IMG/VR virus record: IMGVR_UViG_3300029523_000016
Strand: one strand, 5' to 3'
Source: a virus
Length of the DNA stretch: 33,709 nt
Positions within the stretch are counted from its first letter, which is position 1. Each line of letters opens with the position of its first letter. The notes under the pieces are model-generated. The model ran no database searches and had not been told where the DNA came from. It was given only the letters and a program-made list of their open reading frames with translations. Position numbers and translations under genes: made by a program. Of this stretch, positions 13,178 through 33,709 are shown piece after piece.

Positions 13178-13208
13178 ATAAAAAAAGAAGTAGGTGCTTA
13201 GCCTACTT
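13178..13208 (-). terminator. Rho-independent terminator ending the late (lysis) operon
   Basis: Minus strand reads AAGTAGG-ctaagca-CCTACTT followed by cTTTTTTTat. The stem overlaps the endolysin stop codon. Confidence 0.8.
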
Positions 13209-14022
13209 AATATAATCTTATATTGTCCCAATTTGTAGTTCCATTTTGGATATTCAAATTAACTTGTCTTTGAACTTCATCATAGTTAGAACCTAGTGCA
13301 TTTATTCTATCTTCACCATTTCCAAAGTCTCCTCTAATAGTCTTTCTAACTAAATCTAGAATATCGATGCTTGGCTCTGGTACAGGTGCTAATATTTCAT
13401 TAACTCTTGCTTGCACTTCTGCATATCTATCGCCTAATGCATTCTTTCTATCTTCACCATTACCATATTTACCAGCGATAACTTCTTGTGCTAATTCCTC
13501 TGTAGTTTTTTCTTTGATTGGCTCTGGATTATTAATCTTATTTGCTTCATCAGCGATATACTGCATTTTGCTTCTTAGATAATCTCCAGGACAAGTGGTA
13601 CTAGTAAACATACTATGCCAAGTTAAATTTTTGCCAGGTACTAATATTCCCAAGCTTCTCCTCTTAGCGATATCTGCAACCAATTTAATAACAGCATTTA
13701 AAGTAATATCGTTAACATACCAACTATTATCATTATCAGATATTTCAATAGTTACTGACTTGCAGTTGCTATCCCAATTACTATTAGTCCAAGCAGTATC
13801 TTCTTCATCAACATAATTAGCAATACTTCCATCATACCCAACACCATAGTGAGAACTACCATATCTACCTTTTGCTTGAAATATTCTACCACATTGTTTT
13901 GCAGTTAATCTTCCTGCCATATGATGAATAGTAATTGCTTCAATGCTTCTACCATCTCTGCCTTTAGTATAATTCCCCTCATCTGCAGGTACTATTATTT
14001 GTGTTAGACTTGACTTACTCAT
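13207..14022 (-). CDS. Endolysin: N-acetylmuramoyl-L-alanine amidase (Amidase_2/PGRP) with two C-terminal CW_7-like repeats
   Basis: 271 aa. ITIHHMAG...SSHYGVGYDG...TIEISD...TWHSMFTSTTCPG. Tandem repeats GKYGNGEDRKNALGDRYAEVQARVNEIL and GDFGNGEDRINALGSNYDEVQRQVNLNI. Confidence 0.9.
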   Translation of the reverse strand: MSKSSLTQIIVPADEGNYTKGRDGRSIEAITIHHMAGRLTAKQCGRIFQAKGRYGSSHYGVGYDGSIANYVDEEDTAWTNSNWDSNCKSVTIEISDNDNSWYVNDITLNAVIKLVADIAKRRSLGILVPGKNLTWHSMFTSTTCPGDYLRSKMQYIADEANKINNPEPIKEKTTEELAQEVIAGKYGNGEDRKNALGDRYAEVQARVNEILAPVPEPSIDILDLVRKTIRGDFGNGEDRINALGSNYDEVQRQVNLNIQNGTTNWDNIRLY

Positions 14023-18985: not shown

Positions 18986-21588
18986 TTATGCTCCTCCCAT
19001 TCCATAATTATAATCGTTTTTAGAGCCACCACTAAATGTCTTAATATTATTAACCATTTGTCCTAATGGGTCTTGCTCCATATTGTTATTTACTACTACA
19101 TTAATCTGTGGACTTAAATTAGTACTTGAACTTCCATATAGGCTAGGCGATAAACTAAACATATCATCAAACATTCCATCTACTGTTGAATTAACTTGTC
19201 CTTTCATATCTTCCATACCTTCTTCTAAACCTACCATATTCATTTTACCTATCCATGCAAATTCTGTTGATGGACTATGTATTCCAAATATACTTTTAAT
19301 TCCATTTAATATAGATTTTCCAAAGCCTTTAATCTTGTCTAATATCCATTTGCTAACATTTTTTATACCATTCCATATTCCCATAACCATATTTTTACCT
19401 ATATTAACTAATTTTTTAGGCAATTCCATAAAATAACCTACTAAAGAAGTTATTATTTTAGGAATATAACTTAAAAGTTTAGGGACTGCTTGTATTAATC
19501 CTTGCAATAAACCTATAAGTAATTGAAATCCTGCCTCTATAAATAAAGGCAAATTATCTATTAATATAGGTATAGTGCTAAGAATAGCATCTATGATAAC
19601 TGGTATCAATGTTGGTAATTGTTGTGCTAATGCTTGAATTATCATAATTAATCCTTGAATTAAAGCCTCTAGTATAATAGGCAACATATTTGCCAATTCT
19701 TGAATAATAGTAGGTAACATATCCATTAATATTTGAATAATACTAGGCAATGCTTGTGCTAGCCCTATTAACAATGTTGAAGTTCCTTGTATTAATGCTG
19801 GTAAAATTGCTTGAAGTAAAGGGGCTATCATAGGCACTAAATTATTCAATAAAGTAGTTAAGCCAGTTATTATTTGAGGTGCCATTTTGATTATAGCATT
19901 TGATATATTTGTTCCAGCAGTAGTAAAGGTACTTATCACTTCTTCTATACCACCTGCACCACTTAAAAAATTACTAAATGCCGATTTTGCACTATTTATT
20001 GAGCCACTTATAGTGGTAGAGGCTTCTTTTGCTGTCGTTCCTGTTACATCTAATTCTTCTTGAATTACATGAATAGCATTAAATACATCATTTAAATTAG
20101 AAATATCGTATTTAACTCCTGATATCTTTTCGGCATCAGCAAGTAATCTTTCCATTTCTGTTTTTGTGCCACCATACACTTGTTAACATAAAAGTTTTTT
20201 ATCTTTTATTTCTATATATTTATCATCTATATAGTTCAGCATATCTTTTAACTTATATAAAGTTCCGAAGCCTCGTGGAGGTATTATATCTTTTCAACCT
20301 CTATGCGTTGCCCCTGACTATACTTTGTATAGCCTTCGGTTCTGATTACCCTTTTTTTGATGGGCTTCCAGTTTAATTCTTCGGTTTATACTCGGCTATG
20401 GTCTTTCAACCGAGTTTTAAATTATCTAACCATTTATACCCCTAGTTTCCTAGTACTTTAACACTTATTTAAAAGTGGGATTAGACTATATCTTTATCTC
20501 ATTTGAGATAGTATGCACTTCCAATATCGTATCAATAGATATTGTACTGAGTAACGAACTCATAGTCGTTTGACCTTCCTATTTCTAGGCTTGGCACTGG
20601 ATAACCATATCTTTTAGACTTAGGCTTCCCCAGTTAGCAAGATTATCTCAACAAGTCATTTCCTACTTGTATTTTAATCTCACACCCTTGATAAGGTTCA
20701 CATACACTTACTTAATTATCACTAATTAAGCAGACATTAATTTTATCGTATAATTCTGCTTAGCAAATCCTTGATAAGCATTTTGAATATTCTCAATAGC
20801 AGTACCAAACTTATTTGAATTCCTTTAATACCCTCGGTTTCCCGATATTTATTAGGGGAGTAGACTATCTCATATTAACTCAAATACGTATCCATGATGT
20901 GTTCCTCCATGATTGCAACATCTAGAAATCTCTGATGGTAAAAATCCATCTTTTTTTGCTTCTATCATTGCATCATAAATTTGTATTTGTGTCAATCGCA
21001 CCACTTCGAATTATGTATCAATAATAATTCTACTTCCTTTCGGAATAGTCGTTACAGTTTCCTATTTTCATAGGCTTACCACGGTATTGTCCTCGGCTTT
21101 ACGTTAGGAGTTTCACCGTTAGCATAGTTTACACTACACACCCTTGATAAGGTTCAATGCGTTTAACTCGGACTATTTTGTTAATCCGCCATGTCTTGAA
21201 TAGCCATATCGCCAACTTTGGCTGCCTCTTCTGTATCTCCGCCTAGACTTTGTAATAAACTAGCACTAAATGAAGTTATTTGCTCCATATATTTATTGGC
21301 ATCAATTCCCGCTGTTGTATAGGCTTTTTTTGAGTTCTCTATAACTGTATCAGCACTATCTTTGAAAAGTGTCTCTACACCTCCGATATTCTGCTCTAAA
21401 TCAGCAACACCTTGTAAGGCATCTTTACCAAGTCCTAATAAAGAACTACCTACCTTTTCAATAGCACTAGACATTAAATTACCAATAGCAATAGTGCTTG
21501 CTTTCAATTTACCGGCGACACCATTAGTCTTTTTTTCTAGGTCTTTATCATCTCCTTTAAACTTGAAGATGACTTCTCCTCCATTCAT
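18986..21588 (-). CDS. Tail tape measure protein, four exons: 21588..21184, 20821..20753, 20438..20409, 20176..18986 (564 aa after splicing)
   Basis: Exon 1 ends ...AKVGDMAIQDMAD. Exon 2 is NSNKFGTAIENIQNAYQGFAKQN. Exon 3 is YKWLDNLKLG. Exon 4 is YGGTKTEMERLLADAEKISGVKYDISNLNDVFNAIHVIQEELDVTGTTAKEAS... followed by a long hydrophobic helical repeat region. All joins are in frame. The exon 2 / intron 2 boundary is uncertain by a few nt. Confidence 0.8.
20177..20408 (-). mobile_element. Group-I-like intron 3 (232 nt, ORF-less, minimal)
   Basis: P1: exon ACTCGGT pairs with intron GCCGAGT (nt 13-19) with a terminal U.G pair. The intron ends in G. Plausible P4/P5 with AA joiners, P8 AACTT-tatat-AAGTT, a J8/7-like AAAAGATA, and P9 CTATATA...TATATAG. 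The core was assigned by eye only. Confidence 0.55.
20439..20752 (-). mobile_element. Group I intron 2 (~314 nt, ORF-less)
   Basis: 8-bp P1 (exon TAAGCAGA with intron TCTGCTTA). GCCAAGCCTAGAAATAGGAAGGTCAAACGACTAT (P6 GAAA hairpin, J6/7, P7 5' strand) and AAAGATATAGTC (J8/7, P7 3' strand). Ends ...CTAGGGG. Confidence 0.7.
20822..21183 (-). mobile_element. Group I intron 1 (362 nt) carrying a decayed homing-endonuclease remnant
   Basis: P1: exon CGGAT pairs with intron GTCCG, with a U.G pair. AAGCCTATGAAAATAGGAAACTGTAACGACTAT and GAGATAGTC form P6/P7. Ends ...TATTAAAGG. Shares a 20-mer and other blocks with intron 2. Confidence 0.75.
20870..21004 (-). pseudogene. Remnant of a homing endonuclease C-terminal DNA-binding domain inside intron 1
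   Basis: 44-codon frame VVRLTQIQIYDAMIEAKKDGFLPSEISRCCNHGGTHHGYVFELI. It aligns with the tail of the 8839..9468 HNH (IKEYNSIKEAGLDVNGISTNIVKCLKGKTKSAYGYQWKY). No catalytic domain and no ATG. Confidence 0.5.
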
Positions 21589-21607
21589 TTATTCCACCTC
21601 CTTATTA

Positions 21608-21640
21608 TAAAATAAAGGGCTGGGCTTTTAACCCAACCCT
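21608..21640 (-). terminator. Intrinsic terminator between the major tail protein and tape measure genes
   Basis: Minus strand reads AGGGTTGGG-ttaaaag-CCCAGCCCT then TTATTTTA. The one non-Watson-Crick position is G.U in the minus-strand RNA but C/A on the other strand. Begins 7 nt after the MTP stop. Confidence 0.7.
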
Positions 21641-21647
21641 TATAGGT

Positions 21648-22121
21648 TTATCCTGCTACAACTTCTCCTTTACCAGTTACAACAATAGTTAATGCAAACT
21701 CGCCACTATCTTCAGCAGCACCGCCTAAATCACTAAAGTTCAAAGTACAAGGTACTTTATACTTAGTATAAGTCAATGCTCCTTCTTGAACTCCTGTTAA
21801 TAATTCGAATTGTACTAATTGATTATTAAATTGAGCAACAGTACCATCTTTAATTAATGTATGAATATCGCCTAATATTTTAACTACAGAAGCATTATTC
21901 ATGTCAATTTTAACAGTGGTATCAATAGATATGGCAGCACCAGTGATTATACTTCTTTGAATGGCATCGCACCAAACATACCAGTCTTGTTGCTCGAAAT
22001 CAGTTGTCAAACCAACCTCGGTAGTTGTACACATAGGAGTAAATGCAGGTACTGCACTAGTACCGGTATTTAAACCTAAGTTTTTAATGACTTCTCTATT
22101 ATTTACATAAAATTCATTCAT
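21648..22121 (-). CDS. Major tail protein
   Basis: 157 aa. Lies immediately upstream of the tape measure. Beta-rich with ...NFSDLGGAAEDSGEFALTIVVTGKG, typical of siphovirus tail tube proteins (recalled). No sheath gene is present. Confidence 0.7.
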   Translation of the reverse strand: MNEFYVNNREVIKNLGLNTGTSAVPAFTPMCTTTEVGLTTDFEQQDWYVWCDAIQRSIITGAAISIDTTVKIDMNNASVVKILGDIHTLIKDGTVAQFNNQLVQFELLTGVQEGALTYTKYKVPCTLNFSDLGGAAEDSGEFALTIVVTGKGEVVAG

Positions 22122-22136
22122 ATTTACACTTCCTTT

Positions 22137-22586
22137 CTATAAATCTTTTTCATAAATCTTACTTATAATACATTGTAAGGTTGAATTATACCCAACTCTT
22201 CTAATATCCATATACTCTATTGCTTGTGGATTAACATATTGAGTAAATATAATTTGCCACCTTTCCAATTTATTAGTTTCTTTATTTTCAACTTCTATTC
22301 TTTCCGATTTTCCTATTAGATTACCTATTAATAAAGATAATTCTTTACACTCTCTAATTGTAAGTCCATATATATCAACCATATAATAATTATACATAGG
22401 CAATATATTACCATAGAATACTTGTTTTTGTCCGCTTTGTTCTTGTACGACTATTACCCTACTATCATTATCATTTGTTGAATATTCGGCTTTTATTTTC
22501 CATTTGTCAGTGGTATAGCCACTAACTATGTTTTGAAGATATTTAATTAAGATTAATTGTTTCTTTTCTAATAATTCTCTTGTCAT
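22137..22586 (-). CDS. Tail completion / head-tail joining protein (by position)
   Basis: 149 aa, between the connector genes and the major tail protein. Confidence 0.4.
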   Translation of the reverse strand: MTRELLEKKQLILIKYLQNIVSGYTTDKWKIKAEYSTNDNDSRVIVVQEQSGQKQVFYGNILPMYNYYMVDIYGLTIRECKELSLLIGNLIGKSERIEVENKETNKLERWQIIFTQYVNPQAIEYMDIRRVGYNSTLQCIISKIYEKDL

Positions 22587-22942
22587 TTCAATTCATTCTC
22601 CTTTATAGCAATTCCAACGATACTCTTTTTTTGCTTAGTATATATTTCTTGATACCATTTACCAAAAGTACCAGGCTCAGTCCAATTAGTATTATTAGGC
22701 ATAACCCATACATATTTAGCATAGTTAGTATAAGAGCCTATATAATAATTTCCATCGCTTCCCCTAACTCCTGCTGCCATTGAAGTCTGTCTCATATGGA
22801 CTACTCCTTTTCTTCTTGACATAGGAATATGAGGAAATGTTCTATCAAGTGTTTGTCTTGCTATTGCATACATTATCTTATCAGAAGCCTCTAATACTTC
22901 CTTTTTCTTTCCTGGATACCAATTTACTTTAATATCAGCCAT
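22583..22942 (-). CDS. Head-tail joining protein (HK97 gp10-like position)
   Basis: 119 aa. The call is based on position. Confidence 0.4.
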   Translation of the reverse strand: MADIKVNWYPGKKKEVLEASDKIMYAIARQTLDRTFPHIPMSRRKGVVHMRQTSMAAGVRGSDGNYYIGSYTNYAKYVWVMPNNTNWTEPGTFGKWYQEIYTKQKKSIVGIAIKENELK

Positions 22943-23262
22943 TATTTAACCACTATAATTTTATTCTCTACTCTATTAAATATCCAACTATCTTGAACTT
23001 TTAACACTGTATGGACTTTATTATCAGCATATTTGCCTAAATAAATAATTTGGTCTCCTACTTTTACATCAACAAGTCTTCCAACTTGATAATAGCCAGT
23101 AGCCTCAGGCACTGTATAAACACCAAACCTTATAGCACTTTCACAATCATAAGGACAACATTTAATTGTAATTTCTTTATAATTAGTATCATCAAATATT
23201 TCATCATTTTCATCACGATTAAATTGCCTTAATGTTGCTTTCATACCATTTACTAGAAACAT
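22942..23262 (-). CDS. Head closure / head-tail adaptor protein
   Basis: I prefer the ATG at 23262 (MFLVNGMKATL, GGAGGAG RBS) over the track start at 23343. 106 aa. The call is based on position. Confidence 0.45.
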   Translation of the reverse strand: MFLVNGMKATLRQFNRDENDEIFDDTNYKEITIKCCPYDCESAIRFGVYTVPEATGYYQVGRLVDVKVGDQIIYLGKYADNKVHTVLKVQDSWIFNRVENKIIVVK

Positions 23263-23263
23263 T

Positions 23264-23644
23264 TTATTCTCCTCCAAAAGGTATAGTAAGAGCCATATTA
23301 CTAGACATTGGTGTACCTCTATATAGATATCCATTATTAGCAAGTATTCTTAGTGCTAGAGTAGAATAATCAGTCTTTAAAGGAGAACTCATTGTTCCTG
23401 CCTTTATATCTTTATCAAAATCAACAAATGGAATATCGTGTTCTAATACGAACCTCATTTGTTCCATAGAAGCATTTTTAATAGGCAAAGGGACACTAAT
23501 TGCATCCCAACTAGCATCCCTATATCTTAAGCCTATTTGTGAGAAAATCATCTCACTTACTGCTTCTATCTGCCAAGTTGAAATATCAGCATTTGCATAG
23601 TCTGGGTATTTATCCTCGAACTCTGCTATTGTGAAAAATTGCAT
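23264..23644 (-). CDS. Head-tail connector (gp6-like) protein
   Basis: 126 aa, first gene after the capsid gene. Confidence 0.5.
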   Translation of the reverse strand: MQFFTIAEFEDKYPDYANADISTWQIEAVSEMIFSQIGLRYRDASWDAISVPLPIKNASMEQMRFVLEHDIPFVDFDKDIKAGTMSSPLKTDYSTLALRILANNGYLYRGTPMSSNMALTIPFGGE

Positions 23645-23663
23645 TTTCTCACTTCCTTTCTAA

Positions 23664-24821
23664 CTATTCAGCAATTACAATTGTTCCATTGAATGCATTA
23701 GAATAGTTACCATATTTATCTACACCATAGATTGAAACATTGAATGAACCTGCTTCTGTTGGTGTTCCAGTAACTGCTCCAGTAGTTGCATTTAATGTTA
23801 ATCCTGCTGGTAATCCACCTGCTTCAAACTTTTCAACACCTGTTCCACTAAATGCTGTTTTTTGAGTATAATTTTGTCCAACTTTACCAGCATCGAATGA
23901 ACCAGCATCAACTGTTGGAATACTTTCAACTAATTTAATAACTGCTTCTGGTCTTACTACTTTTGCTCCGAACATTACATTTCCCTCAACAACGAAGTAT
24001 CCTGGGTAGCCAGGGAAGTTACCATTGTATTGAGCAAATGAACTCCAGAATGTATCACCAACTGTACCAACTTCATTAGCAAAGTATCCAACTACATTTG
24101 TATCTTTACCTTCTTTATCTTTTTCTATTACATTGCTATTGATTTGGAATACACTAACACCATAAGCATCAGCAACTTGTCCCATATCAACACCTTCAAC
24201 ACCTGCTCTTGTTTCAAATTTAAGAATTGATGTTAAACTTGAAATAAAGTAAGCATAAGCAGTTGAACTTAGTCCTAATAGGTATCCATCATAGATATTT
24301 CTATCAAATAATTTAGATTTTAAATCATTAATTAATTCAATAGTTTCAGTTCCACTTGCTGGAGCCCATTTAGTGATTTGTCCATCAGTATAAGCCATTG
24401 AACCATCGGCAGAGCCTGTAATATCAGCATTTAATTTATTAAAGCCATAAACGTCGATTTGTCTAGATATTTGAGCCTCTTTTAATTCGATTTGTCCTTC
24501 GATTGCTCTTTCGATACCACTACCCATTACTATAGGGCTTACTCTAAATGAATAGTCCATAGGTAATTCAGTTAAGTCAACTTTTACTGAATTGTAAGTA
24601 GCAAGTTCGTTTGTTATTCCTCCTTGTGCAATTTCTACATTATTTCTTACATTTAATGCAGTGTCTAATTGCTTAACAATCTCAATAATTGGAGTGCCAG
24701 TTCTTCCAACTTCAAACCATCTTCTGTCTAGCATTTTATAGAATTGAGAATTGTAAAGTAAATTAGCATAAGTTCTTTTCATTAAACCTTGTAGGTCTAA
24801 ATTAACTCCTGTAAAATTCAT
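23664..24821 (-). CDS. Major capsid protein with C-terminal Ig-like domain
   Basis: 385 aa, following the scaffold gene. C-terminus GGLPAGLTLNATTGAVTGTPTEAGSFNVSIYGVDKYGN is an Ig-like decoration motif. Confidence 0.7.
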   Translation of the reverse strand: MNFTGVNLDLQGLMKRTYANLLYNSQFYKMLDRRWFEVGRTGTPIIEIVKQLDTALNVRNNVEIAQGGITNELATYNSVKVDLTELPMDYSFRVSPIVMGSGIERAIEGQIELKEAQISRQIDVYGFNKLNADITGSADGSMAYTDGQITKWAPASGTETIELINDLKSKLFDRNIYDGYLLGLSSTAYAYFISSLTSILKFETRAGVEGVDMGQVADAYGVSVFQINSNVIEKDKEGKDTNVVGYFANEVGTVGDTFWSSFAQYNGNFPGYPGYFVVEGNVMFGAKVVRPEAVIKLVESIPTVDAGSFDAGKVGQNYTQKTAFSGTGVEKFEAGGLPAGLTLNATTGAVTGTPTEAGSFNVSIYGVDKYGNYSNAFNGTIVIAE

Positions 24822-24861
24822 AATTTCTTCCTCCTTTTCTTTCCTCTATATTTAACTAAAA

Positions 24862-25419
24862 TTATTTAGTTACAGGTATCATTAAATCTTTAATACTAGT
24901 ACCTCTAGTTATCTTTATATCTTTACCAGTATTAGCATTATTTCCATTTACTCCACCCTCATTAGGTGCTTGTGTAAATGGTATGTTATTCTTCTTTTCT
25001 GTTTCTGGGAAATATGTATTTTTAAATCTAGTTACTATTCCCTCAATTGCTTTGTCATCATCTTTTTCATCAGCATAAAGACTATTCCTTAATTTAACTA
25101 CTTCATCAAAGTTTTCTTCTTTAAAACCTCTCTTAACGAGTTTATTCTCTAGACTTAATCTACCCATCTTATCATTTGCTTCACTTAAAGTCTTGACAGT
25201 ATTGTTGTAGTTAGTTTCTAGATTTGCATAATCTCCTTGAAGTTTAGTATAATCTTCTTTCTTTACATATCCTGAATAATCAGCCTTAGGAATATCACTA
25301 TTCTTTGTATAGCCTTTATAAAGGTCTTTTTCCATAGCAGAAACATCTAGGTCATCATTACTTATAGTAATCTCTTTGTTTTTTAGATATTTAGTAATAT
25401 CAAAATTCATATTTATCAT
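24862..25419 (-). CDS. Scaffolding protein
   Basis: 185 aa, charged and helical, between the MuF-like and capsid genes. Confidence 0.55.
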   Translation of the reverse strand: MINMNFDITKYLKNKEITISNDDLDVSAMEKDLYKGYTKNSDIPKADYSGYVKKEDYTKLQGDYANLETNYNNTVKTLSEANDKMGRLSLENKLVKRGFKEENFDEVVKLRNSLYADEKDDDKAIEGIVTRFKNTYFPETEKKNNIPFTQAPNEGGVNGNNANTGKDIKITRGTSIKDLMIPVTK

Positions 25420-25490
25420 TCTCCTTTTTTTTAGAAGTGATAAAAGTGTGTCGCGACTGCTAACCTTTTATAGACTTAATAGCAATTGGT

Positions 25491-26462
25491 CTATTTATTT
25501 AATTCTTTTATAGTAGCATTTATCTTTTTTATTTTAGCATTTGTTTTATCTACCTCACTTCCATTTCCTAAATCTTCATATATCTTTTTATCATTCTTTA
25601 ATTTAGTTCTTTTTAGTTGTAGGGCTTGTATCTTTTGCTTTTTTTCATAATCTTCTTGCCACTTATCAGAATTATAATCATTTTTTTGTATTTGGTCTTT
25701 ATCCCAATATATAGTCCATTGGTGTCTACAATTAGGATGACCTACACCTCCAGCAATTGCTTCTTCTTGTGGATAATATTTAATTCCATCAGAAGTATAT
25801 CCACTCTTTCCTTCTTTACTATATACCTTACCTTGATAAGGCATACATAAAGGGCAAGCGAATGTATGTGCTGGTAAGTATAAAAGTTCTTTCTCCAATA
25901 AATTAGCATCGTACATTGTCCTGTTCCAACCTGCATGATTAAGATTAGTATTATAAAGCATTGAATTATAATCTGCTATGTTATGCCAACTTCTTACACT
26001 TCCATCTTTATTATGGTATGGAATAGTTGCTTGCACTTCATCATATTTAGTTACTAATTTAGATAAATAACTTTCTCTATCTATATAACCTTTATTTGCT
26101 GTCTTTCTTCTGCCTTTATAATATTCATCAATATTATATTTATATTTTTTCTCTACATTTTGGAATACCTTTTCACTTGCTAATTCATATATTTGTTTAT
26201 ATTCAGCATCAGGATTTATTATTTTATTTCCCTCTAAATCTCTAGCCATTATCATATCTTCAAGTTCTTTTATTCTTTCAGCCATATATTTATGGTCTAC
26301 CTTTTCCCATATTTTTGCAGTTTCTTTTTTGAACTCTGCTAGTGTCTTATTCTTATATAGGTAATCGAAGAATACTCGTTTAGTTTCATACATTAGTTTA
26401 TAATATTCATTCTTTGAATAGTAAGCACTATCTTCTATAAATAAACTAAATGGGTCTTTCAT
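25491..26462 (-). CDS. Head morphogenesis protein (SPP1 gp7 / Mu F-like minor capsid)
   Basis: 323 aa. CPLCMPYQGKVY...GVGHPNCRHQW signature. Directly after the portal gene. Confidence 0.75.
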   Translation of the reverse strand: MKDPFSLFIEDSAYYSKNEYYKLMYETKRVFFDYLYKNKTLAEFKKETAKIWEKVDHKYMAERIKELEDMIMARDLEGNKIINPDAEYKQIYELASEKVFQNVEKKYKYNIDEYYKGRRKTANKGYIDRESYLSKLVTKYDEVQATIPYHNKDGSVRSWHNIADYNSMLYNTNLNHAGWNRTMYDANLLEKELLYLPAHTFACPLCMPYQGKVYSKEGKSGYTSDGIKYYPQEEAIAGGVGHPNCRHQWTIYWDKDQIQKNDYNSDKWQEDYEKKQKIQALQLKRTKLKNDKKIYEDLGNGSEVDKTNAKIKKINATIKELNK

Positions 26463-27826
26463 TATACTTCTCCAAACTTAACTTGTATTGCTTCTTCTTC
26501 CTCTTTGTTAGCATTAATTAATTCTTCTATTAATTTACTATTTTTACCTACATAGTCATCATCAATTAACTTATTAAGTATAGGGGTTATTATCTTAGCC
26601 TTTACACTATATGGAACACTGCCAACACTTTGAATTCTATTTAATACTTGAAGTTTCTTCATATCATTGAATTTCTCATTTGCTCCATAATCCCAATTTA
26701 ACTCGGTAGGTATTAGATTAACTTTTATGTTGTTTGCTTGCTGAGCCTTAACAACATTTTCAAGTAGATGATTTATTTGAGGCTCTATTTGTGTCTTTAT
26801 TGCCTCGATAGTCATATCAGAATTATTCTTACTTAAATCTATGCTATCGACATTCTGATAAGCATCTTTTTCATATCCAAATGTTGCAGGACTTAGTCCA
26901 GCCATTTGAATTACTTGATAATCGCAGAATTTAAACGAACTAATATATTCATTAAATCTAATATTACCTTGTAAAAATTCAAATAATTGGTGGTCTTTAT
27001 CCCCTGGCAATAAAGTAAAGTAATCTGCTAATTTACCAACACTTAATGTATCAACTTTATAATGATTACTTGCAGGTTGCCAATTAGTTACTATATCTCC
27101 ACTTTGATAATGCTGGCTTGTTACTATCTTAGTTTTGGTCTTTTCTATTTCATCAACAAAGGTGTTGAATATTTCCATTTCTTCATTTAAGAATTTTTTA
27201 CTATCTTTAAAGAAATTCTGACCTATATCTATATTAATTAGATTTTCATAAGGTAATATGTACTTAGCAATGTATTCATTACCAGTTCTTAGATTAAATG
27301 TACCTAAATCAACAGGTATTAATTTGCCACCTTTATCTTCTTTGAATACTTCCATAGTCATATAAGTAATACCATTCTCTAACTTAATATTTCTATGAAG
27401 TTCATATATATCTTCTTTAGTAACGAATTCTTGTACGATAGTACCACTTATTACTTTGTCATATTTTTGTACTAAATCGTGTATGTCTGATTTCTTAATA
27501 CACTCTAAATATATCTTATTATAAAATTTATTTATTAATATGAAACTTTCTTCTTCATATACTGCTAATTCTAGGCTCTCTTTAAGTGTAGGCATTAACC
27601 AATTTATTGATAATCCCTCTGTTTGTGTTACTAAATCTGAGCCAAATATTTGATTTACTATATATGTAGCAACCTTTTTACCACTAGGAGCAATTATATA
27701 GTCATTTTTCTTGTAAATATTAGGCTTTCCATTAGTTATACCAGGTTGAGTTACTGTTGCCTCTACTCTTATATATGGAGCCTCTAAATAGTTGTATGCT
27801 GATTTTAATCTTACTTGATTATTCAT
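26462..27826 (-). CDS. Portal protein
   Basis: 454 aa. Position between the terL region and the MuF-like gene, and the size is typical. Confidence 0.75.
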   Translation of the reverse strand: MNNQVRLKSAYNYLEAPYIRVEATVTQPGITNGKPNIYKKNDYIIAPSGKKVATYIVNQIFGSDLVTQTEGLSINWLMPTLKESLELAVYEEESFILINKFYNKIYLECIKKSDIHDLVQKYDKVISGTIVQEFVTKEDIYELHRNIKLENGITYMTMEVFKEDKGGKLIPVDLGTFNLRTGNEYIAKYILPYENLINIDIGQNFFKDSKKFLNEEMEIFNTFVDEIEKTKTKIVTSQHYQSGDIVTNWQPASNHYKVDTLSVGKLADYFTLLPGDKDHQLFEFLQGNIRFNEYISSFKFCDYQVIQMAGLSPATFGYEKDAYQNVDSIDLSKNNSDMTIEAIKTQIEPQINHLLENVVKAQQANNIKVNLIPTELNWDYGANEKFNDMKKLQVLNRIQSVGSVPYSVKAKIITPILNKLIDDDYVGKNSKLIEELINANKEEEEAIQVKFGEV

Positions 27827-28161
27827 TTAATATCAACTCCTTCATATATTAGAGTTTCAATATGAGCCTCTCTTTTCTTTTCATCAGTCAATTTATATTT
27901 ATAACTTTGAACTACTATTTGCACTTTTCTATCAGTTCCTAGTAAATGTTTCATACCTCTTGTTTTTACTACATAGAACTTACCCATAGGAGCAAAGTCT
28001 TTATCTATCTTTCTTTTATCTATGCATTGACCATTTAAATATAAATACAAAGTCCATTTCTTATTATTTTCATAATTTAATCTTGATTTTTGCATAAATT
28101 CTGCAATTTTGCCGATTAATTTATTAAAAATGGCACTTATTTGCTTTATTAGAGTTCTCAT
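27823..28161 (-). CDS. Hypothetical protein (112 aa)
   Basis: I prefer the ATG at 28161 (MRTLIKQ, GAAAGGAG RBS). The track extension to 28200 would run through the terminator T-tract. Confidence 0.5.
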   Translation of the reverse strand: MRTLIKQISAIFNKLIGKIAEFMQKSRLNYENNKKWTLYLYLNGQCIDKRKIDKDFAPMGKFYVVKTRGMKHLLGTDRKVQIVVQSYKYKLTDEKKREAHIETLIYEGVDIK

Positions 28162-28189
28162 TTTTAACTCCTTTCTATGTGTATAAATA

Positions 28190-28223
28190 ATAAAAAACAT
28201 ATAGTTATCTCTTTAACTATATG
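28190..28223 (-). terminator. Intrinsic terminator ~40 nt downstream of the 28298 promoter
   Basis: Minus strand reads CATATAGTTA-aagaga-TAACTATATG (perfect 10-bp stem) followed by TTTTTTATT. Confidence 0.75.
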
Positions 28224-28269
28224 CTTCTTATGTTTACGACACACTTTTTCGCACTTTTCTATCTCTTAA

Positions 28270-28298
28270 ATTATAGCATAATTATTTATTATTGTCAA
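28270..28298 (-). promoter_or_regulatory. Consensus sigma-A promoter with extended -10
   Basis: Minus strand reads TTGACA (28298-28293), 17 nt, TGcTATAAT (28278-28270). Overlaps the last codons of the 28282..28506 ORF. Confidence 0.7.
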
Positions 28299-28506
28299 CA
28301 TCTCTTTTATAACTTCTAATATGTATGTAATGAGTAGGGTAGATTTCATATACTTCTATCATCTTACACTTAGGGCAAGGATATTCTATTACCAAAGGAG
28401 TTTCCACTTCTATTCCCATTTTTTTTAGATTTTTATAATATTCTTCAATTTCTATTTTAAATAAATATCTTTTTGTAGATTTACAACGAATTTCGATTTT
28501 AATCAA
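28282..28506 (-). CDS. Small zinc-ribbon protein (CPKC; loosely Mu Com-like)
   Basis: 74 aa. IEIRCKSTKRYLFKIE...EYPCPKCKMIEVYEI. The first Cys pair is degenerate. Confidence 0.45.
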   Translation of the reverse strand: MIKIEIRCKSTKRYLFKIEIEEYYKNLKKMGIEVETPLVIEYPCPKCKMIEVYEIYPTHYIHIRSYKRDVDNNK

Positions 28507-28512
28507 CTCCTT

Positions 28513-29889
28513 TTATACCACTGGTGCTCTATCAGTTTCTTTAAACTCTATTATGATATACCTTAAAGCATCTATATGGTCATCAAACTCTTTTACATAG
28601 GTCTCTTTACCACTTTTAGCACTTGCTTTTAAATCATATCTATAACTTTCTAATTCAAGCAATCCATCATCTTTACCACTATAAACCAATTCGCCATTGT
28701 CTGTTATATGCTTAATTGCTTTTTGTTTATATATAAGCAAATATTCCTTATAAAACAAAGATTGCATATATTGAACTCCTTCAACTACATTATCCATACT
28801 TTTATTGATTAATGTATGTGGTATATTATCAGCAATTAACCTATTATGGAAATGAGCAGCAGCACTATCTAATACCATAGTGGTTATAGGCACCTGTCCA
28901 TACTCGCTTTTTAGATACAATAAGAATAATCTTAATTGCTTGCTAAAATATTCAGTTGTAGGGTTATCTTGTTCTTCTTTAGCATTGTGGTAATAATACT
29001 CTAGCCTTATTAATACCCATTTCTTATTTACTTTATCATAAGCAAGAGCAATAGGTACGAAGGCTGTCGCATGGACTGAGCCATAGTCTATTCCTATTCC
29101 TATTTCTCTGAAAGCATAGTCATTTAAATCATTAATGATGTTTATTGTTGTAAAAATTTTTCCAGTTGCAAGTATCCATCTATTGAATATCTTTTGTTCT
29201 CTTAGATTTCCAGGTGGGAACATTTCCAATACCTTTCGCATTGCTTCTTCTGTTTTTATCTTAGGATTGTCATAAGGAAAGAAAGAATAATGCTTAGCAT
29301 AAGGTTTCTTATCTATGTAGTCAATCTTATATGGGTGATTTTCCCCTCCCTCAACATTGAACGAATGTATGGTCTTTAAATAGGGATGGTCTGCGTAAGA
29401 TACTTGTCTACCAGGGAATTCATTAAATGGCTCTCTTAAATTATCTTGTGAGTATATTCTAGCACTTTCATCTATCCATTCAAATATTAAAGGTTTACCT
29501 AATATCTTGTTAAATGCAAGAACATTGTTAAAACCAAAGAAATAATATCTGATATTGTATATTTCAAGATATTTTTCATCAGTCTGCCACCTTAATATAT
29601 AATCTCTTCCTTTTTTTAACTTCATATCATCTAGAAATTTTTTTAAAGGCTCTAATATATTACCTTTTAATGTCTCTAAACTCCAACCAGTTATAGAGCC
29701 AAAATAAGTTTCATTTGGATTATAGTTATATAAGGCTTGAGCATATAAGATACATCCTAAACATATATCAAAGGTCTTGCCACTTTGTGTACTTCCTAAT
29801 ACATATATTTCAGTTAGATTAGGACTAATTATATCATTTAGTAGTTGACTTTGCTTTTTTGATAGTGTTAGATTTAGATTTGTTTCCAT
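28513..29889 (-). CDS. terL: Terminase large subunit
   Basis: 458 aa. Walker A VLGSTQSGKTF and Walker B-like IFEWIDESARI. C-terminal nuclease-like region with LDSAAA...DDHIDALRY. Confidence 0.9.
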   Translation of the reverse strand: METNLNLTLSKKQSQLLNDIISPNLTEIYVLGSTQSGKTFDICLGCILYAQALYNYNPNETYFGSITGWSLETLKGNILEPLKKFLDDMKLKKGRDYILRWQTDEKYLEIYNIRYYFFGFNNVLAFNKILGKPLIFEWIDESARIYSQDNLREPFNEFPGRQVSYADHPYLKTIHSFNVEGGENHPYKIDYIDKKPYAKHYSFFPYDNPKIKTEEAMRKVLEMFPPGNLREQKIFNRWILATGKIFTTINIINDLNDYAFREIGIGIDYGSVHATAFVPIALAYDKVNKKWVLIRLEYYYHNAKEEQDNPTTEYFSKQLRLFLLYLKSEYGQVPITTMVLDSAAAHFHNRLIADNIPHTLINKSMDNVVEGVQYMQSLFYKEYLLIYKQKAIKHITDNGELVYSGKDDGLLELESYRYDLKASAKSGKETYVKEFDDHIDALRYIIIEFKETDRAPVV

Positions 29890-30070
29890 TTTCCAACTCC
29901 CTATCTATTTCTTCAATTTTCTGAGTAGTCTTCCCTTGACACTCATTACTTTCTATATCTTTAATAATTAATTCTTTCTTTTCTAATTTCAATTTTTCTT
30001 CATTAGATACTATCAAACCATTGCTATCTTTGATTAAATATCTATCTTCTCTTAATTTAATAAACTCCAT
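29834..30070 (-). CDS. Hypothetical protein (78 aa) overlapping the terL start
   Basis: Track ORF with a 56-nt overlap with terL. Function unknown. Confidence 0.45.
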   Translation of the reverse strand: MEFIKLREDRYLIKDSNGLIVSNEEKLKLEKKELIIKDIESNECQGKTTQKIEEIDRELENGNKSKSNTIKKAKSTTK

Positions 30071-30079
30071 ATTTACCTC

Positions 30080-30322
30080 CTATTTAAGTCTAAATACTTG
30101 TCCATTATCAGAATACATACCATAGCCATTGCCTAAGTCTTTGTATACTCTTCCATTGTGTAATTTGATTTTACTTTCTGCTGTTTTTGGAATAGTAGAG
30201 CCAACCTTAACAAATTTAGTAGGTATTTCTGTTTTTTCTTCTTGAACTTGTGAATTAACTGGCTTGTTATCTAAACTAATAACATCAACCTTTTTCTTTC
30301 CAGTGTTACTCTTTTTTGCCAT
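30080..30322 (-). CDS. Hypothetical basic protein (80 aa)
   Basis: I prefer the ATG at 30322 (MAKKSNTGKKKV, AAGGAGG RBS). The track extension to 30361 is created by a 20-bp duplication. Confidence 0.5.
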   Translation of the reverse strand: MAKKSNTGKKKVDVISLDNKPVNSQVQEEKTEIPTKFVKVGSTIPKTAESKIKLHNGRVYKDLGNGYGMYSDNGQVFRLK

Positions 30323-30353
30323 TTCTGATACCTCCTTTTTCTTTCCAGTGTTA
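30289..30353. repeat. Perfect 20-bp direct repeat bracketing the RBS and start codon of the 30080..30322 gene
   Basis: CCTTTTTCTTTCCAGTGTTA occurs at 30289-30308 and 30334-30353, offset 45 bp. Confidence 0.9.
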
Positions 30354-30361
30354 TTAAACAC

Positions 30362-30751
30362 TACACTAATAATATGTTTAGTTTTCTAAAGTAGTTAGCC
30401 TGTTAGAAATATAGTGCCTCATTGGCGAACCTAACCTACACTTGCATATTATCATTGTACTGCTTAATAGATACTATACCAATGATATATACTATTCATA
30501 GTGGAACTATGGACTTCAATCTATATCATCAGTATACTACCTATAAGGGTAGTACTATAATTCATTTATGGCGGGGGTATGTTATCCAAATACACTTCAC
30601 ATACACTATCAACAATAATAGCCTTTCTAATGTGTCAAATTATACTTAATTATTATGTCTTTAGCAAGTGGGTGGGCTCGAACCACCATTCAATTTTAGG
30701 TTGACAGCCTATTATCTACTCATAAGGTCTCCCAGAGTAGCCCCCAGATTT
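30362..30751 (-). other. ORF-free, hairpin-rich, less AT-rich tract with a tRNA-like 5' module (candidate ncRNA, leader or packaging-signal region)
   Basis: No minus-strand ORF. T arm GGTGG-TTCGAGC-CCACC at 30687-30671, plus D-like and anticodon-like hairpins at 30740-30697. Several further perfect 6-7 bp hairpins lie downstream. Confidence 0.4.
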
Positions 30752-31090
30752 TTATAATTCATCTATTGTTAAATTATATTTATATTCAAATAATTTCTTC
30801 TTTAATTTATAAACTTCTGTTCTAACTCCTTTAGTATCTTCAACTACCCATTTTTTATCAACATAATCGTAATAGTAAAAGTCTGCTATGTAATATATAG
30901 GTCTTATCTTTTTACCTTTAACATTTGTATATCCTTCTTGAAGTAAGAACTTTTTTTGTAGTTCTAGATTACATATATAATCAGTGTCTTGCATTAATTC
31001 AAGGTCTTTATATCTCTGCATTTCTTTTTTACTTTCGAACTTAATTCCATTATAGATAACTTTGGTGTTGTGATATTTATTTATTTTCAT
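30752..31090 (-). CDS. DUF1064-type PD-(D/E)XK nuclease (resolvase-like)
   Basis: KYHNTKVIYNGIKFESKKEMQRYKDLELMQDTDYICNLELQKKF...IYYIADFYYYD...VVEDTKG...YKLKKKLFEYKY matches DUF1064 as recalled. I prefer the ATG at 31090 (GGAGAG RBS). Confidence 0.7.
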   Translation of the reverse strand: MKINKYHNTKVIYNGIKFESKKEMQRYKDLELMQDTDYICNLELQKKFLLQEGYTNVKGKKIRPIYYIADFYYYDYVDKKWVVEDTKGVRTEVYKLKKKLFEYKYNLTIDEL

Positions 31091-31439
31091 ATAATACACT
31101 CTCCAAATTACTATTATCTACTACTTCTAATTTTATTGTTGGAACTGATACCTCGGTTTTTTCTGGTTCTAATTCTCCTATTGTTTCAAGAATAGTTTTA
31201 TAATTAATAGCATTCCCTTTCATGGCACCTTTTACAAGCCCTATGTTTACTAAATCTTGATAAGTCTTTCCAGATGGATTTCCTTTTTTATCTTTTACTT
31301 CTTCTTGTAATAGTTCTTTAAGAGCCATTTTAAAGGTTTTTTTTAATGCCCTTACTTCTCCACTACGTTTACCAGCCCTCGACTGTTCTTCTTTTGTTAG
31401 TGTATGCCCTCCTGGTATTAAGTTATCTTCTTTAGCCAT
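31077..31439 (-). CDS. Putative terminase small subunit-like protein
   Basis: 120 aa. NLIPGGHTLTKEEQSRAGKRSGEVRALKKTFKMALKELL...LVKGAMKGNAINYKTILETIGE resembles a Firmicute-phage TerS family (pattern ...GRKGG..SGE.RR.KKT.KE.L..LL...KA.KGD.KA...I.D..GE), recalled from memory and not verified. Confidence 0.4.
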   Translation of the reverse strand: MAKEDNLIPGGHTLTKEEQSRAGKRSGEVRALKKTFKMALKELLQEEVKDKKGNPSGKTYQDLVNIGLVKGAMKGNAINYKTILETIGELEPEKTEVSVPTIKLEVVDNSNLESVLYENK

Positions 31440-31485
31440 AGTATCACCTACTTTATTATATCTTTTAATTTCTTTTTATTAACCA

Positions 31486-31899
31486 TTATTTCAACTCTGC
31501 CATTACTAAATATTTATTATTGATTTCCTCTACATAAGATAAGGCTTTTTCCTTGCTATTATACGCTTTTGTTAAACCTAAACCATTTTTAACTACCCAT
31601 ACTTGGCTTACTTCTACTTCAGCATCTATGATAGTACCTTTATCTTTTTCATTTTTAGTCTTAGAATATTTATCTATAGGCTTAGTAACTGTAATTTTAT
31701 TATATTCAACATCTTTATCAATTATCATTTCAAATAATGCTTTCTTATAACTTATTTCATCTAATTCCATATATTCTACATTACATAATAATTGTCCTGT
31801 AGGTATTAACATATAATTTCCTTTTTTATCTTCATATTTAGCTATTTCTTTTGTTACCTTTGTTATATTTTTATTAAACTTAATTAAATCTCTTTCCAT
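31486..31899 (-). CDS. Hypothetical protein (137 aa)
   Basis: Track ORF. Confidence 0.5.
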   Translation of the reverse strand: MERDLIKFNKNITKVTKEIAKYEDKKGNYMLIPTGQLLCNVEYMELDEISYKKALFEMIIDKDVEYNKITVTKPIDKYSKTKNEKDKGTIIDAEVEVSQVWVVKNGLGLTKAYNSKEKALSYVEEINNKYLVMAELK

Positions 31900-31914
31900 T
31901 TTTTATTTTCCTTC

Positions 31915-32211
31915 CTAATTTTCGTAAATTATTTCTTTGTCATATTCAACAGCAATTTGGTGTTCTATTTTGCATCCTCTTGCTTTTTCCCAACCTTTCA
32001 TAAAAAAGATTATATCTGCTTGTGCTAAATATTCAATGCTTTTTGATAAAAACCATATTGCTTCATCAACATTTTTCGGTGCTTCATCAAATACAGTATC
32101 TAATACTTCATAACCATTATCTTCAAATTCTTGTACTAATACTTTTCTTTCTTCTTTTATTTGTTCATTTGTTTTGCCTCTCATAGGTTGGCTTATCATT
32201 ATTTTTTTCAT
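31915..32211 (-). CDS. DUF4406 / nucleoside 2-deoxyribosyltransferase-like protein
   Basis: 98 aa. ISQPMRGKTNEQI...ADIIFFMKGWEKARGCKIEHQIA fits the DUF4406 pattern (ISGPM.G...N......D.v..l.GW..S.Ga..E...A). Confidence 0.55.
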   Translation of the reverse strand: MKKIMISQPMRGKTNEQIKEERKVLVQEFEDNGYEVLDTVFDEAPKNVDEAIWFLSKSIEYLAQADIIFFMKGWEKARGCKIEHQIAVEYDKEIIYEN

Positions 32212-32456
32212 TATTTTCCTCCTATTTTTCCTATATTTTCCATCATTTTTAAATATTCTTTGCCAATAGGACTTTTAAAATAATTATTACATATATCTAT
32301 TGCACAATTTATGGTTGCATTTGCAACATTTTTAATAAGTGAAATAACTTCTTCTGGTTTGGTTTTATTTGCAATACAAATATTTGCTAAATTGTGTTTT
32401 TGCTCATCAGTCATTTTTTCCACTATATCAGCATTTGTGATATTAATATGTTTCAT
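32211..32456 (-). CDS. Hypothetical protein (81 aa)
   Basis: Track ORF whose start and stop abut its neighbours. Confidence 0.5.
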   Translation of the reverse strand: MKHINITNADIVEKMTDEQKHNLANICIANKTKPEEVISLIKNVANATINCAIDICNNYFKSPIGKEYLKMMENIGKIGGK

Positions 32457-32845
32457 TATTTTCCTCCTAATTGACTTGTTTCTTTTAATCTTCCTTTTAA
32501 ATTATCAAACACTTCCTTTGTAGGTATAAATATTTGAGGTATTTGATTAATTCTTCTTAATTCTCTCCAATATTTTCGCTCTTCTTTATCTTTTATACTT
32601 GCTATATTTATTGTTCTTGATTTTATAATGTCATACAAAGGTTCGGTTTTAGGTACACTTCCTAATTTCTTTTTAAATTCAAATAAACCCAATTGCATAA
32701 AATCTTTATATGAGATGTTTTCATATCTACTACAATAAAAGGCATAGGCTTGGTCTAAGTCCTCTTGATAAGCAAAGCAAAATATTGTTTTATTGCTTGT
32801 TTTTTTGCTATAATTATTCTTTATTTCCCTCACTGGGAGTATCAT
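32456..32845 (-). CDS. Hypothetical protein (129 aa)
   Basis: Track ORF. Confidence 0.5.
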   Translation of the reverse strand: MILPVREIKNNYSKKTSNKTIFCFAYQEDLDQAYAFYCSRYENISYKDFMQLGLFEFKKKLGSVPKTEPLYDIIKSRTINIASIKDKEERKYWRELRRINQIPQIFIPTKEVFDNLKGRLKETSQLGGK

Positions 32846-33284
32846 CTAGTCCTTTGTTAATGATTTGTCCTAATTTAGAACTAAATAATTGTAGTTGCAT
32901 AGGTTGTTCTGCTTCTGGTATGTTATCAATACCCATATCATCAAATAAATCTTTTATGTTCTTACCGAATAATTTTTCTATCATTTCATTTAATATAATT
33001 GCCTCTTCTAATTGAATATAAAACTTTTCATATTCTTGATAGTTAGTTTCATCATAAGTTATATGACCTTTTCCATCATCTTTTTTGATAATAAGGTCAT
33101 TTTTTGTTATTCCTTGTTTACTTAATTCTTTATACATATTAAGTCTTGCTGTTGCTACTATTCCTTGTAACTTTTCAGCCATTTCAATTGTTCTTTTGAA
33201 CTCAATAGATACTTCTTTTTTATCTTTGCTAGTATATACTAATTTATAAGTATCTAAGTCCATTTTAATAAATTCATATTTCAT
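32814..33284 (-). CDS. Hypothetical protein (156 aa)
   Basis: I prefer the ATG at 33284 (MKYEFIK, TGGAGGA RBS) over the track start at 33296. Confidence 0.5.
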   Translation of the reverse strand: MKYEFIKMDLDTYKLVYTSKDKKEVSIEFKRTIEMAEKLQGIVATARLNMYKELSKQGITKNDLIIKKDDGKGHITYDETNYQEYEKFYIQLEEAIILNEMIEKLFGKNIKDLFDDMGIDNIPEAEQPMQLQLFSSKLGQIINKGLDDTPSEGNKE

Positions 33285-33462
33285 TTTATCCTCCAATTCT
33301 AAAAAAGTTAGAAATTATCACACTCACTAAAGGCAAACTCATAATTTCATAAAAGAATATTTATTGGAGAACAAACATTTTATATCTTTTAAAGGGGTGA
33401 ATAATATGTTTAAGAAAATAATATTTTTAGTTTTTGCTTGTTCTCCTACTTTTTCACTTCCT

Positions 33463-33491
33463 ATTATAGCATAATTATTTCTTTATTGCAA
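33463..33491 (-). promoter_or_regulatory. Sigma-A-type promoter with extended -10 (second copy of the 18-bp box)
   Basis: Minus strand reads TTGCAA (33491-33486), 17 nt, TGcTATAAT (33471-33463). Overlaps the last codons of the zinc-ribbon ORF. Confidence 0.55.
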
Positions 33492-33666
33492 CTAAATTAT
33501 TACATCTTATACAATATACTTCGTTTTTGCTATTAGTCATAAATAAACTTTTTTTATGACATTTAGGGCATATTTCTTTTGGCTTTCTATTGTATGTATT
33601 GTGTATTTCTTTTAATTTATTTTTTTCTCTTTCTCTTAATATTTTTCTTTCACTATTTTGGCTCAT
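33475..33666 (-). CDS. Small zinc-ribbon protein (63 aa)
   Basis: MSQNSERKILREREKNKLKEIHNTYNRKPKEICPKCHKKSLFMTNSKNEVYCIRCNNLVAIKK, with CPKC...CIRC. I prefer the ATG at 33666 (GGAGGT RBS). On the circular map its start overlaps the sigma gene 3' end. Confidence 0.55.
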   Translation of the reverse strand: MSQNSERKILREREKNKLKEIHNTYNRKPKEICPKCHKKSLFMTNSKNEVYCIRCNNLVAIKK

Positions 33667-33709
33667 TTTTATTACCTCCATTATATTTTTCTTTGCATTC
33701 TTTTATAAA
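33597..33709. repeat. Terminal direct repeat, copy 2 (identical to 1-113)
   Basis: Identical to 1-113. It duplicates the 3' end of the sigma gene and the 5' end of the zinc-ribbon gene. Confidence 0.95.

Follow-up and report, generated by a model that had tools for sequence, protein, structure and literature searches.

A conserved promoter-leader-terminator RNA element at the entrance to the late operon of a gut phage family: a candidate transcription attenuator

The timing of late gene expression is, to our knowledge, well understood for the lambdoid phages and a few Bacillus and Lactococcus phages; for the gut phages of uncultivated Bacillota, abundant as they are, it is scarcely understood. 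The question is raised sharply by one locus of the 33,709-nt phage sequence analysed here (the whole stretch is referred to as the window), where a first-pass annotation had placed a full-consensus minus-strand promoter (TTGACA, 17 nt, TGcTATAAT), then a 10-bp perfect hairpin with six Ts, and only then a ribosome-binding site, an ATG at 28161 and the portal gene. All of these elements proved to be where they had been placed, the promoter at 28298-28270, the hairpin and T-run at 28223-28192 and the Shine-Dalgarno (SD) sequence at 28175-28168, with the portal gene identified by PHROGs/Pfam. What, then, does a terminator do between a consensus promoter and the structural genes of a phage?

The first 113 nt of the window recur exactly, as a direct repeat, in its last 113 (positions 1-113 and 33597-33709), so that it represents an entire phage genome of 33,596 bp, either circular or terminally redundant; its GC content is ~26%, and its minus strand carries every credible gene. 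ARAGORN found neither a tRNA nor a tmRNA. The replication and early region, which contains ERF, a DnaD-like protein, HTH proteins, methylases and HNH proteins, is headed by three near-consensus sigma-A-type promoters on the minus strand (13096, 8740 and 7720). Past the circular junction, in minus-strand order, come a small zinc-ribbon open reading frame (ORF), a second good promoter, several small genes and terL, followed by a 74-aa ORF, the promoter, leader and terminator studied here, a 112-aa ORF and the portal gene. Minor head (likewise supported by PHROGs/Pfam), scaffold, capsid, tail, tape-measure and lysis genes extend 3' of the portal gene down to 13207. Between 28192 and the portal gene there is no other good or strong promoter, and transcription can enter the portal, head, tail and lysis genes only by way of the terminator at 28223-28192. 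The landmarks of the genome are:

57-629, minus strand: sigma-70-family factor (Sigma70_r2 and r4), last gene of the early region
13207-14022, minus strand: endolysin, end of the late gene run
21615-21641, minus strand: strong, G+C-rich intrinsic terminator within the late operon, 12-bp stem with six G-C pairs
26462-27826, minus strand: portal gene (PHROGs/Pfam)
28513-29889, minus strand: terL (PHROGs/Pfam)
33463-33491, minus strand: second good promoter, TTGCAA-17-TGcTATAAT, with 18 bases (AAATAATTATGCTATAAT) identical to the promoter studied here

Elsewhere in this genome, the tape-measure gene lies in two minus-strand pieces, an N-terminal part at 21181-21588 and the remainder at 18986-20179, separated by ~1 kb (20180-21180) in which all three kinds of stop codon occur in all frames. 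This gap holds an Rfam Intron_gpI match at 20463-20705 (43.9 bits, E = 1e-9, just below the gathering score of 50) and a second, weak one at 20962-21166, and is probably one or two group I introns. A 390-nt non-coding minus-strand gap between the DUF1064 gene and the next ORF (30362-30751) harbors a perfect tRNA T-arm-like sequence, GGTGGTTCGAGCCCACC, along with other G+C-rich stretches; ARAGORN predicted no tRNA in it, Rfam returned only two weak matches to implausible eukaryotic families, and the gap could be a non-coding RNA, a tRNA remnant or att-like site, or a packaging site.

The promoter in front of the late genes is the best-scoring site of the entire window and the only 12/12 match with a TG within 20000-33709. 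Taken as a class, promoter-like sites show no enrichment, with 72 present where 80 would be expected, so significance attaches to this site being perfect and conserved. From the promoter and terminator geometry, transcription would start near 28263 and yield a short RNA of ~68-72 nt. The parts of the locus are:

28282-28506, minus strand: 74-aa Cys3-His protein just upstream of the leader, its stop overlapping the promoter
28293-28298, minus strand: -35 hexamer TTGACA, overlapping the last codons of the 74-aa ORF
28270-28278, minus strand: extended -10, TGcTATAAT, 17-nt spacer from the -35
28262-28264, minus strand: predicted transcription start from promoter geometry, 6-8 nt past the -10
28250-28256, minus strand: 5' leader motif AAGUGC(G), unique in the window
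28230-28244, minus strand: P1 mini-hairpin (GUGU 28244-28241, loop GUCGUAA 28240-28234, ACAU 28233-28230)
28198-28224, minus strand: terminator hairpin, core of 10 perfect base pairs, conserved foot GCAU at 28224-28221
28192-28197, minus strand: U6 tract, predicted 3' end of the ~70-nt RNA
28190-28260, minus strand: match to covariance model R1 (see below), 30.9 bits, E = 6e-4, the sole hit in the 33.7-kb window
28168-28175 and 28159-28161, minus strand: SD GAAAGGAG and ATG of the first late gene
27823-28161, minus strand: 112-aa basic protein (pI 9.8) with a 'KKWTLYLYLNGQC' core, a homologue of which always lies directly 3' of the leader

The second promoter (33491-33463), with AAGTGAAAAAGT after it, overlaps the stop of the small zinc-ribbon ORF 33475-33681 and has the appearance of a promoter module duplicated in part. 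Its 170-nt leader (33462-33290) was considered as a second copy of the element and rejected (z = -1.1, no covariance-model match).

The arms of the hairpin, CATATAGTTA (28223-28214) and TAACTATATG (28207-28198), enclose the loop AAGAGA (28213-28208). With fewer than three G-C pairs in its stem, the hairpin escaped a standard terminator scan; in a scan without the GC requirement it is the most stable minus-strand hairpin with a T-run, at -11.6 kcal/mol. The complete 81-nt leader folds at -20.1 kcal/mol (z = -5.6), a value reached by none of 200 shuffled sequences. Another ATG, at 28198-28200, falls within the 3' arm of the terminator; it shares the reading frame of the 28161 start and gives MFFIIYTHRKELK-M...; public gene calls often begin there (125-aa versions), and in other clades its equivalent is the sole possible start. 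Reading the leader box as a peptide (GTG CGA AAA AGT GTG TCG TAA) was rejected, as indels between clades break the frame and no SD precedes it.

Megablast of the region against GenBank phages gave zero matches and tblastn with terL found relatives there at no more than 25% identity, so that no annotated relative was usable. Relatives were located instead in IMG/VR and in gut metagenome-assembled genomes labelled Bacilli, 'Tenericutes', Clostridia and Erysipelotrichaceae. With terL as the seed for scans of viral and genome collections, and with a DNA-pattern scan independent of protein context, more than 150 loci were obtained, from which 77 distinct versions of the cassette were extracted, all from related gut phage contigs with terL 48-99% identical. 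The conservation of the promoter-terminator layout in these relatives shows that it is not a product of chance. Among close relatives the cassette is nearly identical, even where terL has been displaced by split-intein/HNH insertions. At 77-85% terL identity both promoter hexamers remain perfect, the spacer and the start of the transcript are changed in sequence, the box AAGTGC(G)AAAAAGTGTGTC..AAACATAAGAAGCATA is retained, and the hairpin stem carries compensatory substitutions. At 48-64% the same plan is still recognizable, running from the promoter through a variable 8-16 nt, AAGUGC(A/G), a linker, P1, (G)GAAG and a terminator with the foot GCAYA/URUGC to a run of five to eight Us, and then to the SD and ATG of a gene with a KWxLYLYxNG core and to the portal gene.

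Across the whole set, 53 of the 77 members have a promoter matching at least 11 of 13 positions at the right distance (random positions: 0.56%). The promoter hexamers are conserved across clades, with TTGACA retained in most relatives, while the spacer diverges and the early transcribed bases drift. The distance from the -10 to AAGUGC is mostly 8-16 nt. AAGUGC(A/G) is invariant in all aligned members, with AAGUGU read in L081, L082 and L094, and a U-run of five to eight is found in every full-length member examined. The three loci with AAGUGU have no recognizable promoter but retain leader and terminator; there the element would be read from the terL operon.

Two variants of the surroundings were observed among these loci. 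In some clades (L058, L064, L065, L111, L174) two to three copies of (A)TGTCG at ~10-nt spacing replace the -35 upstream of a perfect TATAAT, which suggests an activator-dependent version of the promoter. In L010 (4001-6396; also L012, L014-L017, L019, L024, L029 and L030) terL is a 'fractured' gene, whose residues 1-442 are fused to an intein N-fragment (CLTGDT...) ending in a stop. Next comes a separate HNH endonuclease gene, served by a consensus promoter of its own, and then an intein C-fragment (...VVHN|C) joined to the final 16 residues of terL; the whole is a split intein whose halves flank a homing endonuclease.

The element keeps a fixed company. With both the context-free pattern scan and the covariance model, true members were found only directly upstream of KWxLYLY genes; hits of ~22 bits at L107, L108, L121, L122, L133, L125, L097 and L156, none with a KWxLYLY gene, were coding sequence or unrelated terminators and were discarded. 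The start codon of the downstream gene lies inside the terminator 3' arm in 11 of the 73 resolved members, directly after the U-run in 13, and 4-41 nt downstream in the other 49; its SD is found 0-41 nt past the U-run or inside the hairpin, and in members whose start is inside or directly after the terminator it occupies the hairpin loop. This exclusive context, the existence of promoter-less members and the position of the start codon in or near the terminator tie the RNA to the gene 3' of it.

In most lineages P1 consists of an outer helix of 3-6 bp, a bulged G beside an invariant G-C pair, an inner helix of 3-5 bp and a variable loop, conserved in neither sequence nor length. The window clade ('class A') has instead a 4-bp mini-hairpin, GUGU-GUCGYAA-ACAY. 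The string GUCGCAAAC, which in other lineages makes up the 3' side of P1, is kept in this clade, and the opposite, 5' strand of P1 appears to have been lost. A plain MAFFT alignment of the leaders placed P1 off by one column in several rows and was replaced by an N-padded, hand-registered alignment (A3) and by covariance-model-based ones. In A3, double-sided changes occur in 17 of 25 pairs (178 cells, against 52 +/- 6 in shuffles); its 100% pairing is by construction and carries no weight. The covariance model R1, seeded only with distant bulged-P1 relatives and with no window-clade sequence, was used to search and align 63 sources, and gave exactly one convincing match per locus. In the resulting alignment 94% of cells are paired, against 70% in shuffles and 30-56% in slid-partner controls, and 257 cells carry double-sided changes, against 83 in shuffles. 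P1 and the terminator stem thus covary strongly, and the conserved part of the cassette is the transcribed leader with its covarying helices, not the promoter interior.

The invariant GUGC of the leader motif (28254-28251) is complementary to the invariant GCAY that forms the foot of the terminator 5' arm (GCAU 28224-28221 in the window). When nascent transcripts ending before the terminator 3' arm were folded, the proposed helix between these strands, P0, enclosed P1 in the minimum-free-energy structure of 56 of the 57, with a mean pair probability of 0.93; GCAY was paired with a probability of 0.95, which fell to 0.55 when the 5' segment was shuffled, so that even in this control the foot is paired about half the time. 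P0 is only 4 bp long with both strands invariant, and family covariation says nothing about it. Once the terminator can form it is favored by a wide margin, the full leader of the window folding at -20.1 kcal/mol with the terminator and at -5.7 kcal/mol in the competing state. As modeled, the GUGC:GCAY pairing would have the layout of a factor-stabilized antiterminator.

We therefore propose, at a probability of roughly 0.55, that the element acts in cis as a transcription attenuator where the morphogenesis and lysis operon begins, keeping that operon off until a factor prevents the hairpin. The consensus promoter would be fired constitutively by the host sigma-A-type polymerase, and the nascent leader would adopt a small domain in which P0 (28254-28251 with 28224-28221) surrounds P1 and is connected to it through a purine-rich internal loop. 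By default, the terminator, needing the same GCAU as its foot, would displace the 4-bp P0, and polymerase would halt at the U-run and release the ~70-nt RNA. A trans-factor holding P0/P1 together would keep the terminator from forming, so that the KWxLYLY gene and the portal, head, tail and lysis genes are transcribed; in clades with the ribosome site in the hairpin, that site would be freed together with read-through. As in factor-dependent attenuators generally, an intrinsic terminator lies in the 5' leader directly upstream of a gene. Counted against the attenuator is the phage's own sigma factor (57-629), which may have a part in late transcription. A more specific version of the proposal, which we put forward only tentatively, is that a small phage protein of new fold, with the two encoded beside the leader as candidates, or else a metabolite, binds a ~40-nt aptamer-like domain made up of AAGUGCA, the bulged-G hairpin and the GAAG junction, and thereby both blocks the terminator and unmasks the ribosome site.

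The arrangement had been likened to lambda PR'/6S RNA/tR', and the regulatory logic of that comparison holds: a strong constitutive promoter is followed by an intrinsic terminator before the lysis and morphogenesis genes, the order is conserved, a short abortive RNA would be the default, and late expression would require overcoming the terminator. The Q-type mechanism, on present evidence, does not carry over. In lambda, Q binds to DNA inside the promoter and acts on a polymerase held at a sigma-dependent pause. In the gut phages the promoter interior is unconserved and some members have no promoter; conservation falls instead on a structured RNA, with a 5' motif complementary to the foot of the terminator, and the host belongs to a low-GC gut lineage of the Bacillota/'Tenericutes'. 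TAGAAA/TAGATA-like sequences, possible -10-like pause elements, stand before AAGUGC in the window clade and are not kept across the family. Pfam and PHROGs searches of 50 window ORFs (packaging, early and some structural) found no Q-family, N, NusG-like, CAT/PRD, ANTAR or known RNA-binding domain. The suggestion that an antiterminator modifies polymerase at the promoter is accordingly disfavored by the diverging spacer and first transcribed bases, the promoter-less members and the lack of a Q-like domain among those 50 ORFs.

A wider class of processive antitermination, of the lambda N-nut, HK022 put, conAn or Q type, would have AAGUGCA and P1 serve as a nascent-RNA loading site at which a factor or the RNA itself renders polymerase terminator-resistant through the 15-kb late operon. 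Nut sites have a boxA-boxB layout, and the order of promoter, conserved linear box, small covarying hairpin and terminator resembles it, as it does put; a resistant polymerase would also pass the strong internal terminator at 21641-21615, and a small protein gene next to a cis RNA element recalls conAn (PMC8191782). Nevertheless, we consider this class unlikely. There is a single copy per genome, the P1 loops vary in sequence and length in a way that boxB does not while the bulged G flanked by a G-C pair is conserved, the terminator is an integral, sequence-conserved part of the element, the unconserved promoter spacer leaves no equivalent of a Q-binding element, and no Q, N or NusG-like domain occurs among the proteins scanned. 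Modification of polymerase would not need the invariant 5' motif to be complementary to the invariant terminator foot, and the 24 of 73 start codons lying in or directly after the hairpin would still be occluded if only polymerase were altered. Prevention of the hairpin fits better than an altered polymerase because, in this third of the members, it would open translation as well; the ribosome site within the hairpin is our main argument, an indirect one, for a structure-based mechanism. The internal terminator just upstream of the tape-measure gene, which overlaps a 10/12 promoter-like site, bears on whether late transcription is terminator-resistant.

Less likely still is a stand-alone small RNA gene, whose ~70-nt product would act in trans through its invariant 5' end, or as a packaging or assembly cofactor encoded next to the terminase and portal genes, with read-through as leakage. 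A consensus promoter with a terminator is the classic layout of such a gene, an invariant single-stranded 5' motif is seed-like, and there is precedent in StxS, a PR'-tR' by-product of an Stx phage that acts as a small RNA (PMC7547250). Yet one and the same gene always follows the element immediately, its SD 0-41 nt past the U-run or within the hairpin; the late genes would be left without another evident promoter; and sites complementary to the motif (GCACTT) number 18 against 10.6 expected, with no pattern at start codons, for a motif that at 6-7 nt is too short for a meaningful comparison. That promoter-less L081, L082 and L094 keep leader and terminator argues for a cis element rather than an independent RNA gene. 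The terminated ~70-nt product may have a secondary role as a trans-acting RNA, though none of the observations calls for one.

We give somewhat less credence again to an unregulated partial terminator, an insulator or stoichiometry setter that would stop a fixed fraction of transcripts from the promoter and the terL operon without acting as a switch. Leaky terminators are common in phage operons, and that at 21641-21615 may be another; the window hairpin itself, with an AT-rich stem of modest stability (about -10 to -12 kcal/mol), could be leaky on its own, without any factor. Such a device, however, leaves the invariant 5' motif, the covarying bulged-G P1 and the conserved foot unexplained over terL identities of 48-99%, and a strong promoter directly before a terminator would be wasteful. 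A related suggestion, that the hairpin mainly stops read-through from terL and the promoter re-initiates, is disfavored by their order, since the promoter precedes the terminator and the 30 nt after the U-run hold only the SD. Lastly, a metabolite-sensing ON-riboswitch, in which the P0/P1 junction would bind a small molecule reporting host state or phage DNA replication, would share the use of the aptamer closing-helix 3' strand as terminator 5' arm and has conserved junction nucleotides with variable loops, but is very improbable given its very small conserved core, a 4-bp window-clade P1 with little room for a ligand pocket and no Rfam riboswitch match.

The attenuator has its nearest relatives in kind among the leader controls of Firmicutes. 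In LicT/SacY-RAT, PyrR, HutP and TRAP systems and in the pbuE adenine ON-riboswitch, nucleotides are shared between the antiterminator and the terminator 5' arm, as predicted here for P0; termination is the default and a bound factor gives read-through, as we propose, and a candidate regulator adjoins the leader. The present RNA differs from RAT, PyrR, HutP, TRAP and ANTAR sites and from any Rfam family, it would control a phage structural operon, and in the ORFs scanned neither a CAT/PRD or ANTAR domain nor any other domain known to bind RNA was found. Phage Mu Com-mom offers another parallel, as a small zinc-binding protein gene lies upstream of a hairpin that sequesters a start codon, the situation of many family members here. 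The Cys3-His protein shares neither sequence nor fold with Com and is a putative RNA binder; the hairpin here, in contrast to that of mom, has a U-run and a dedicated upstream promoter, so that control would probably be mainly transcriptional. The conAn systems of pLS20 and other Gram-positive conjugative plasmids likewise place a small protein gene before a cis RNA region, one that suppresses termination, on a Bacillota mobile element, without homology to the present one; conAn2 spans 260-600 nt, acts processively at a distance and has no promoter or terminator of its own (PMC8191782). A type III toxin-antitoxin system (ToxIN-like) was also considered and rejected, as the ~45 nt of leader ahead of the hairpin are present once, with no tandem repeats, and the downstream gene is syntenic with the portal gene. 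Rfam 15 gave no gathering-level match in the window, the best leader hit (E = 0.22) being to an unrelated family, as was that for the leader of L083 (E = 0.15), and the literature searched contains no description of the motif. This leader RNA family, its architecture and its putative partner are undescribed in Rfam or the searched literature; a gate before phage late genes is known as a kind.

The factor is most likely a phage protein made earlier, and two candidates present themselves by position. The 74-aa Cys3-His protein encoded upstream has invariant C8, C44 and C47, a near-invariant H62 and a pI of 9.0. Its AF2 model is confident (pLDDT 84.7) and of beta-beta-alpha-beta-beta-beta topology, with no significant match in the PDB and only weak ones in BFVD (E = 0.05), to small cysteine-rich phage proteins, and searches found no informative homologues. 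One locus, L033, lacks both the Cys3-His gene and the leader, a single event, and at several loci other genes lie between the two; their synteny may reflect shared descent alone, and the assignment of this protein as trans-factor is speculative. The 112-aa basic KWxLYLY protein encoded downstream is represented by 322 clusters in public data; its structure model is poor (pLDDT 66), the fold search gave no meaningful match and no informative homologue was found. A regulator encoded 3' of its own terminator generates positive feedback, as with bglG or hutP, and the same would follow if the KWxLYLY protein were the factor.

The element is a compact and sharply delimited RNA in which the invariant nucleotides are clear and the helices covary; its target operon is unambiguous, and it offers a directly testable model of how lysis and assembly genes are gated in these gut phages. 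It is a candidate for a new protein-RNA (or ligand-RNA) antitermination pair, and the small, portable promoter-leader-terminator cassette could serve as a switch in low-GC hosts. For annotation, the leader is a useful marker of the early/late boundary in this phage family. If the more specific reading is true, a switch worked by a new-fold protein or a metabolite would time the whole morphogenesis and lysis program in widespread gut phages of uncultivated low-GC Bacillota.
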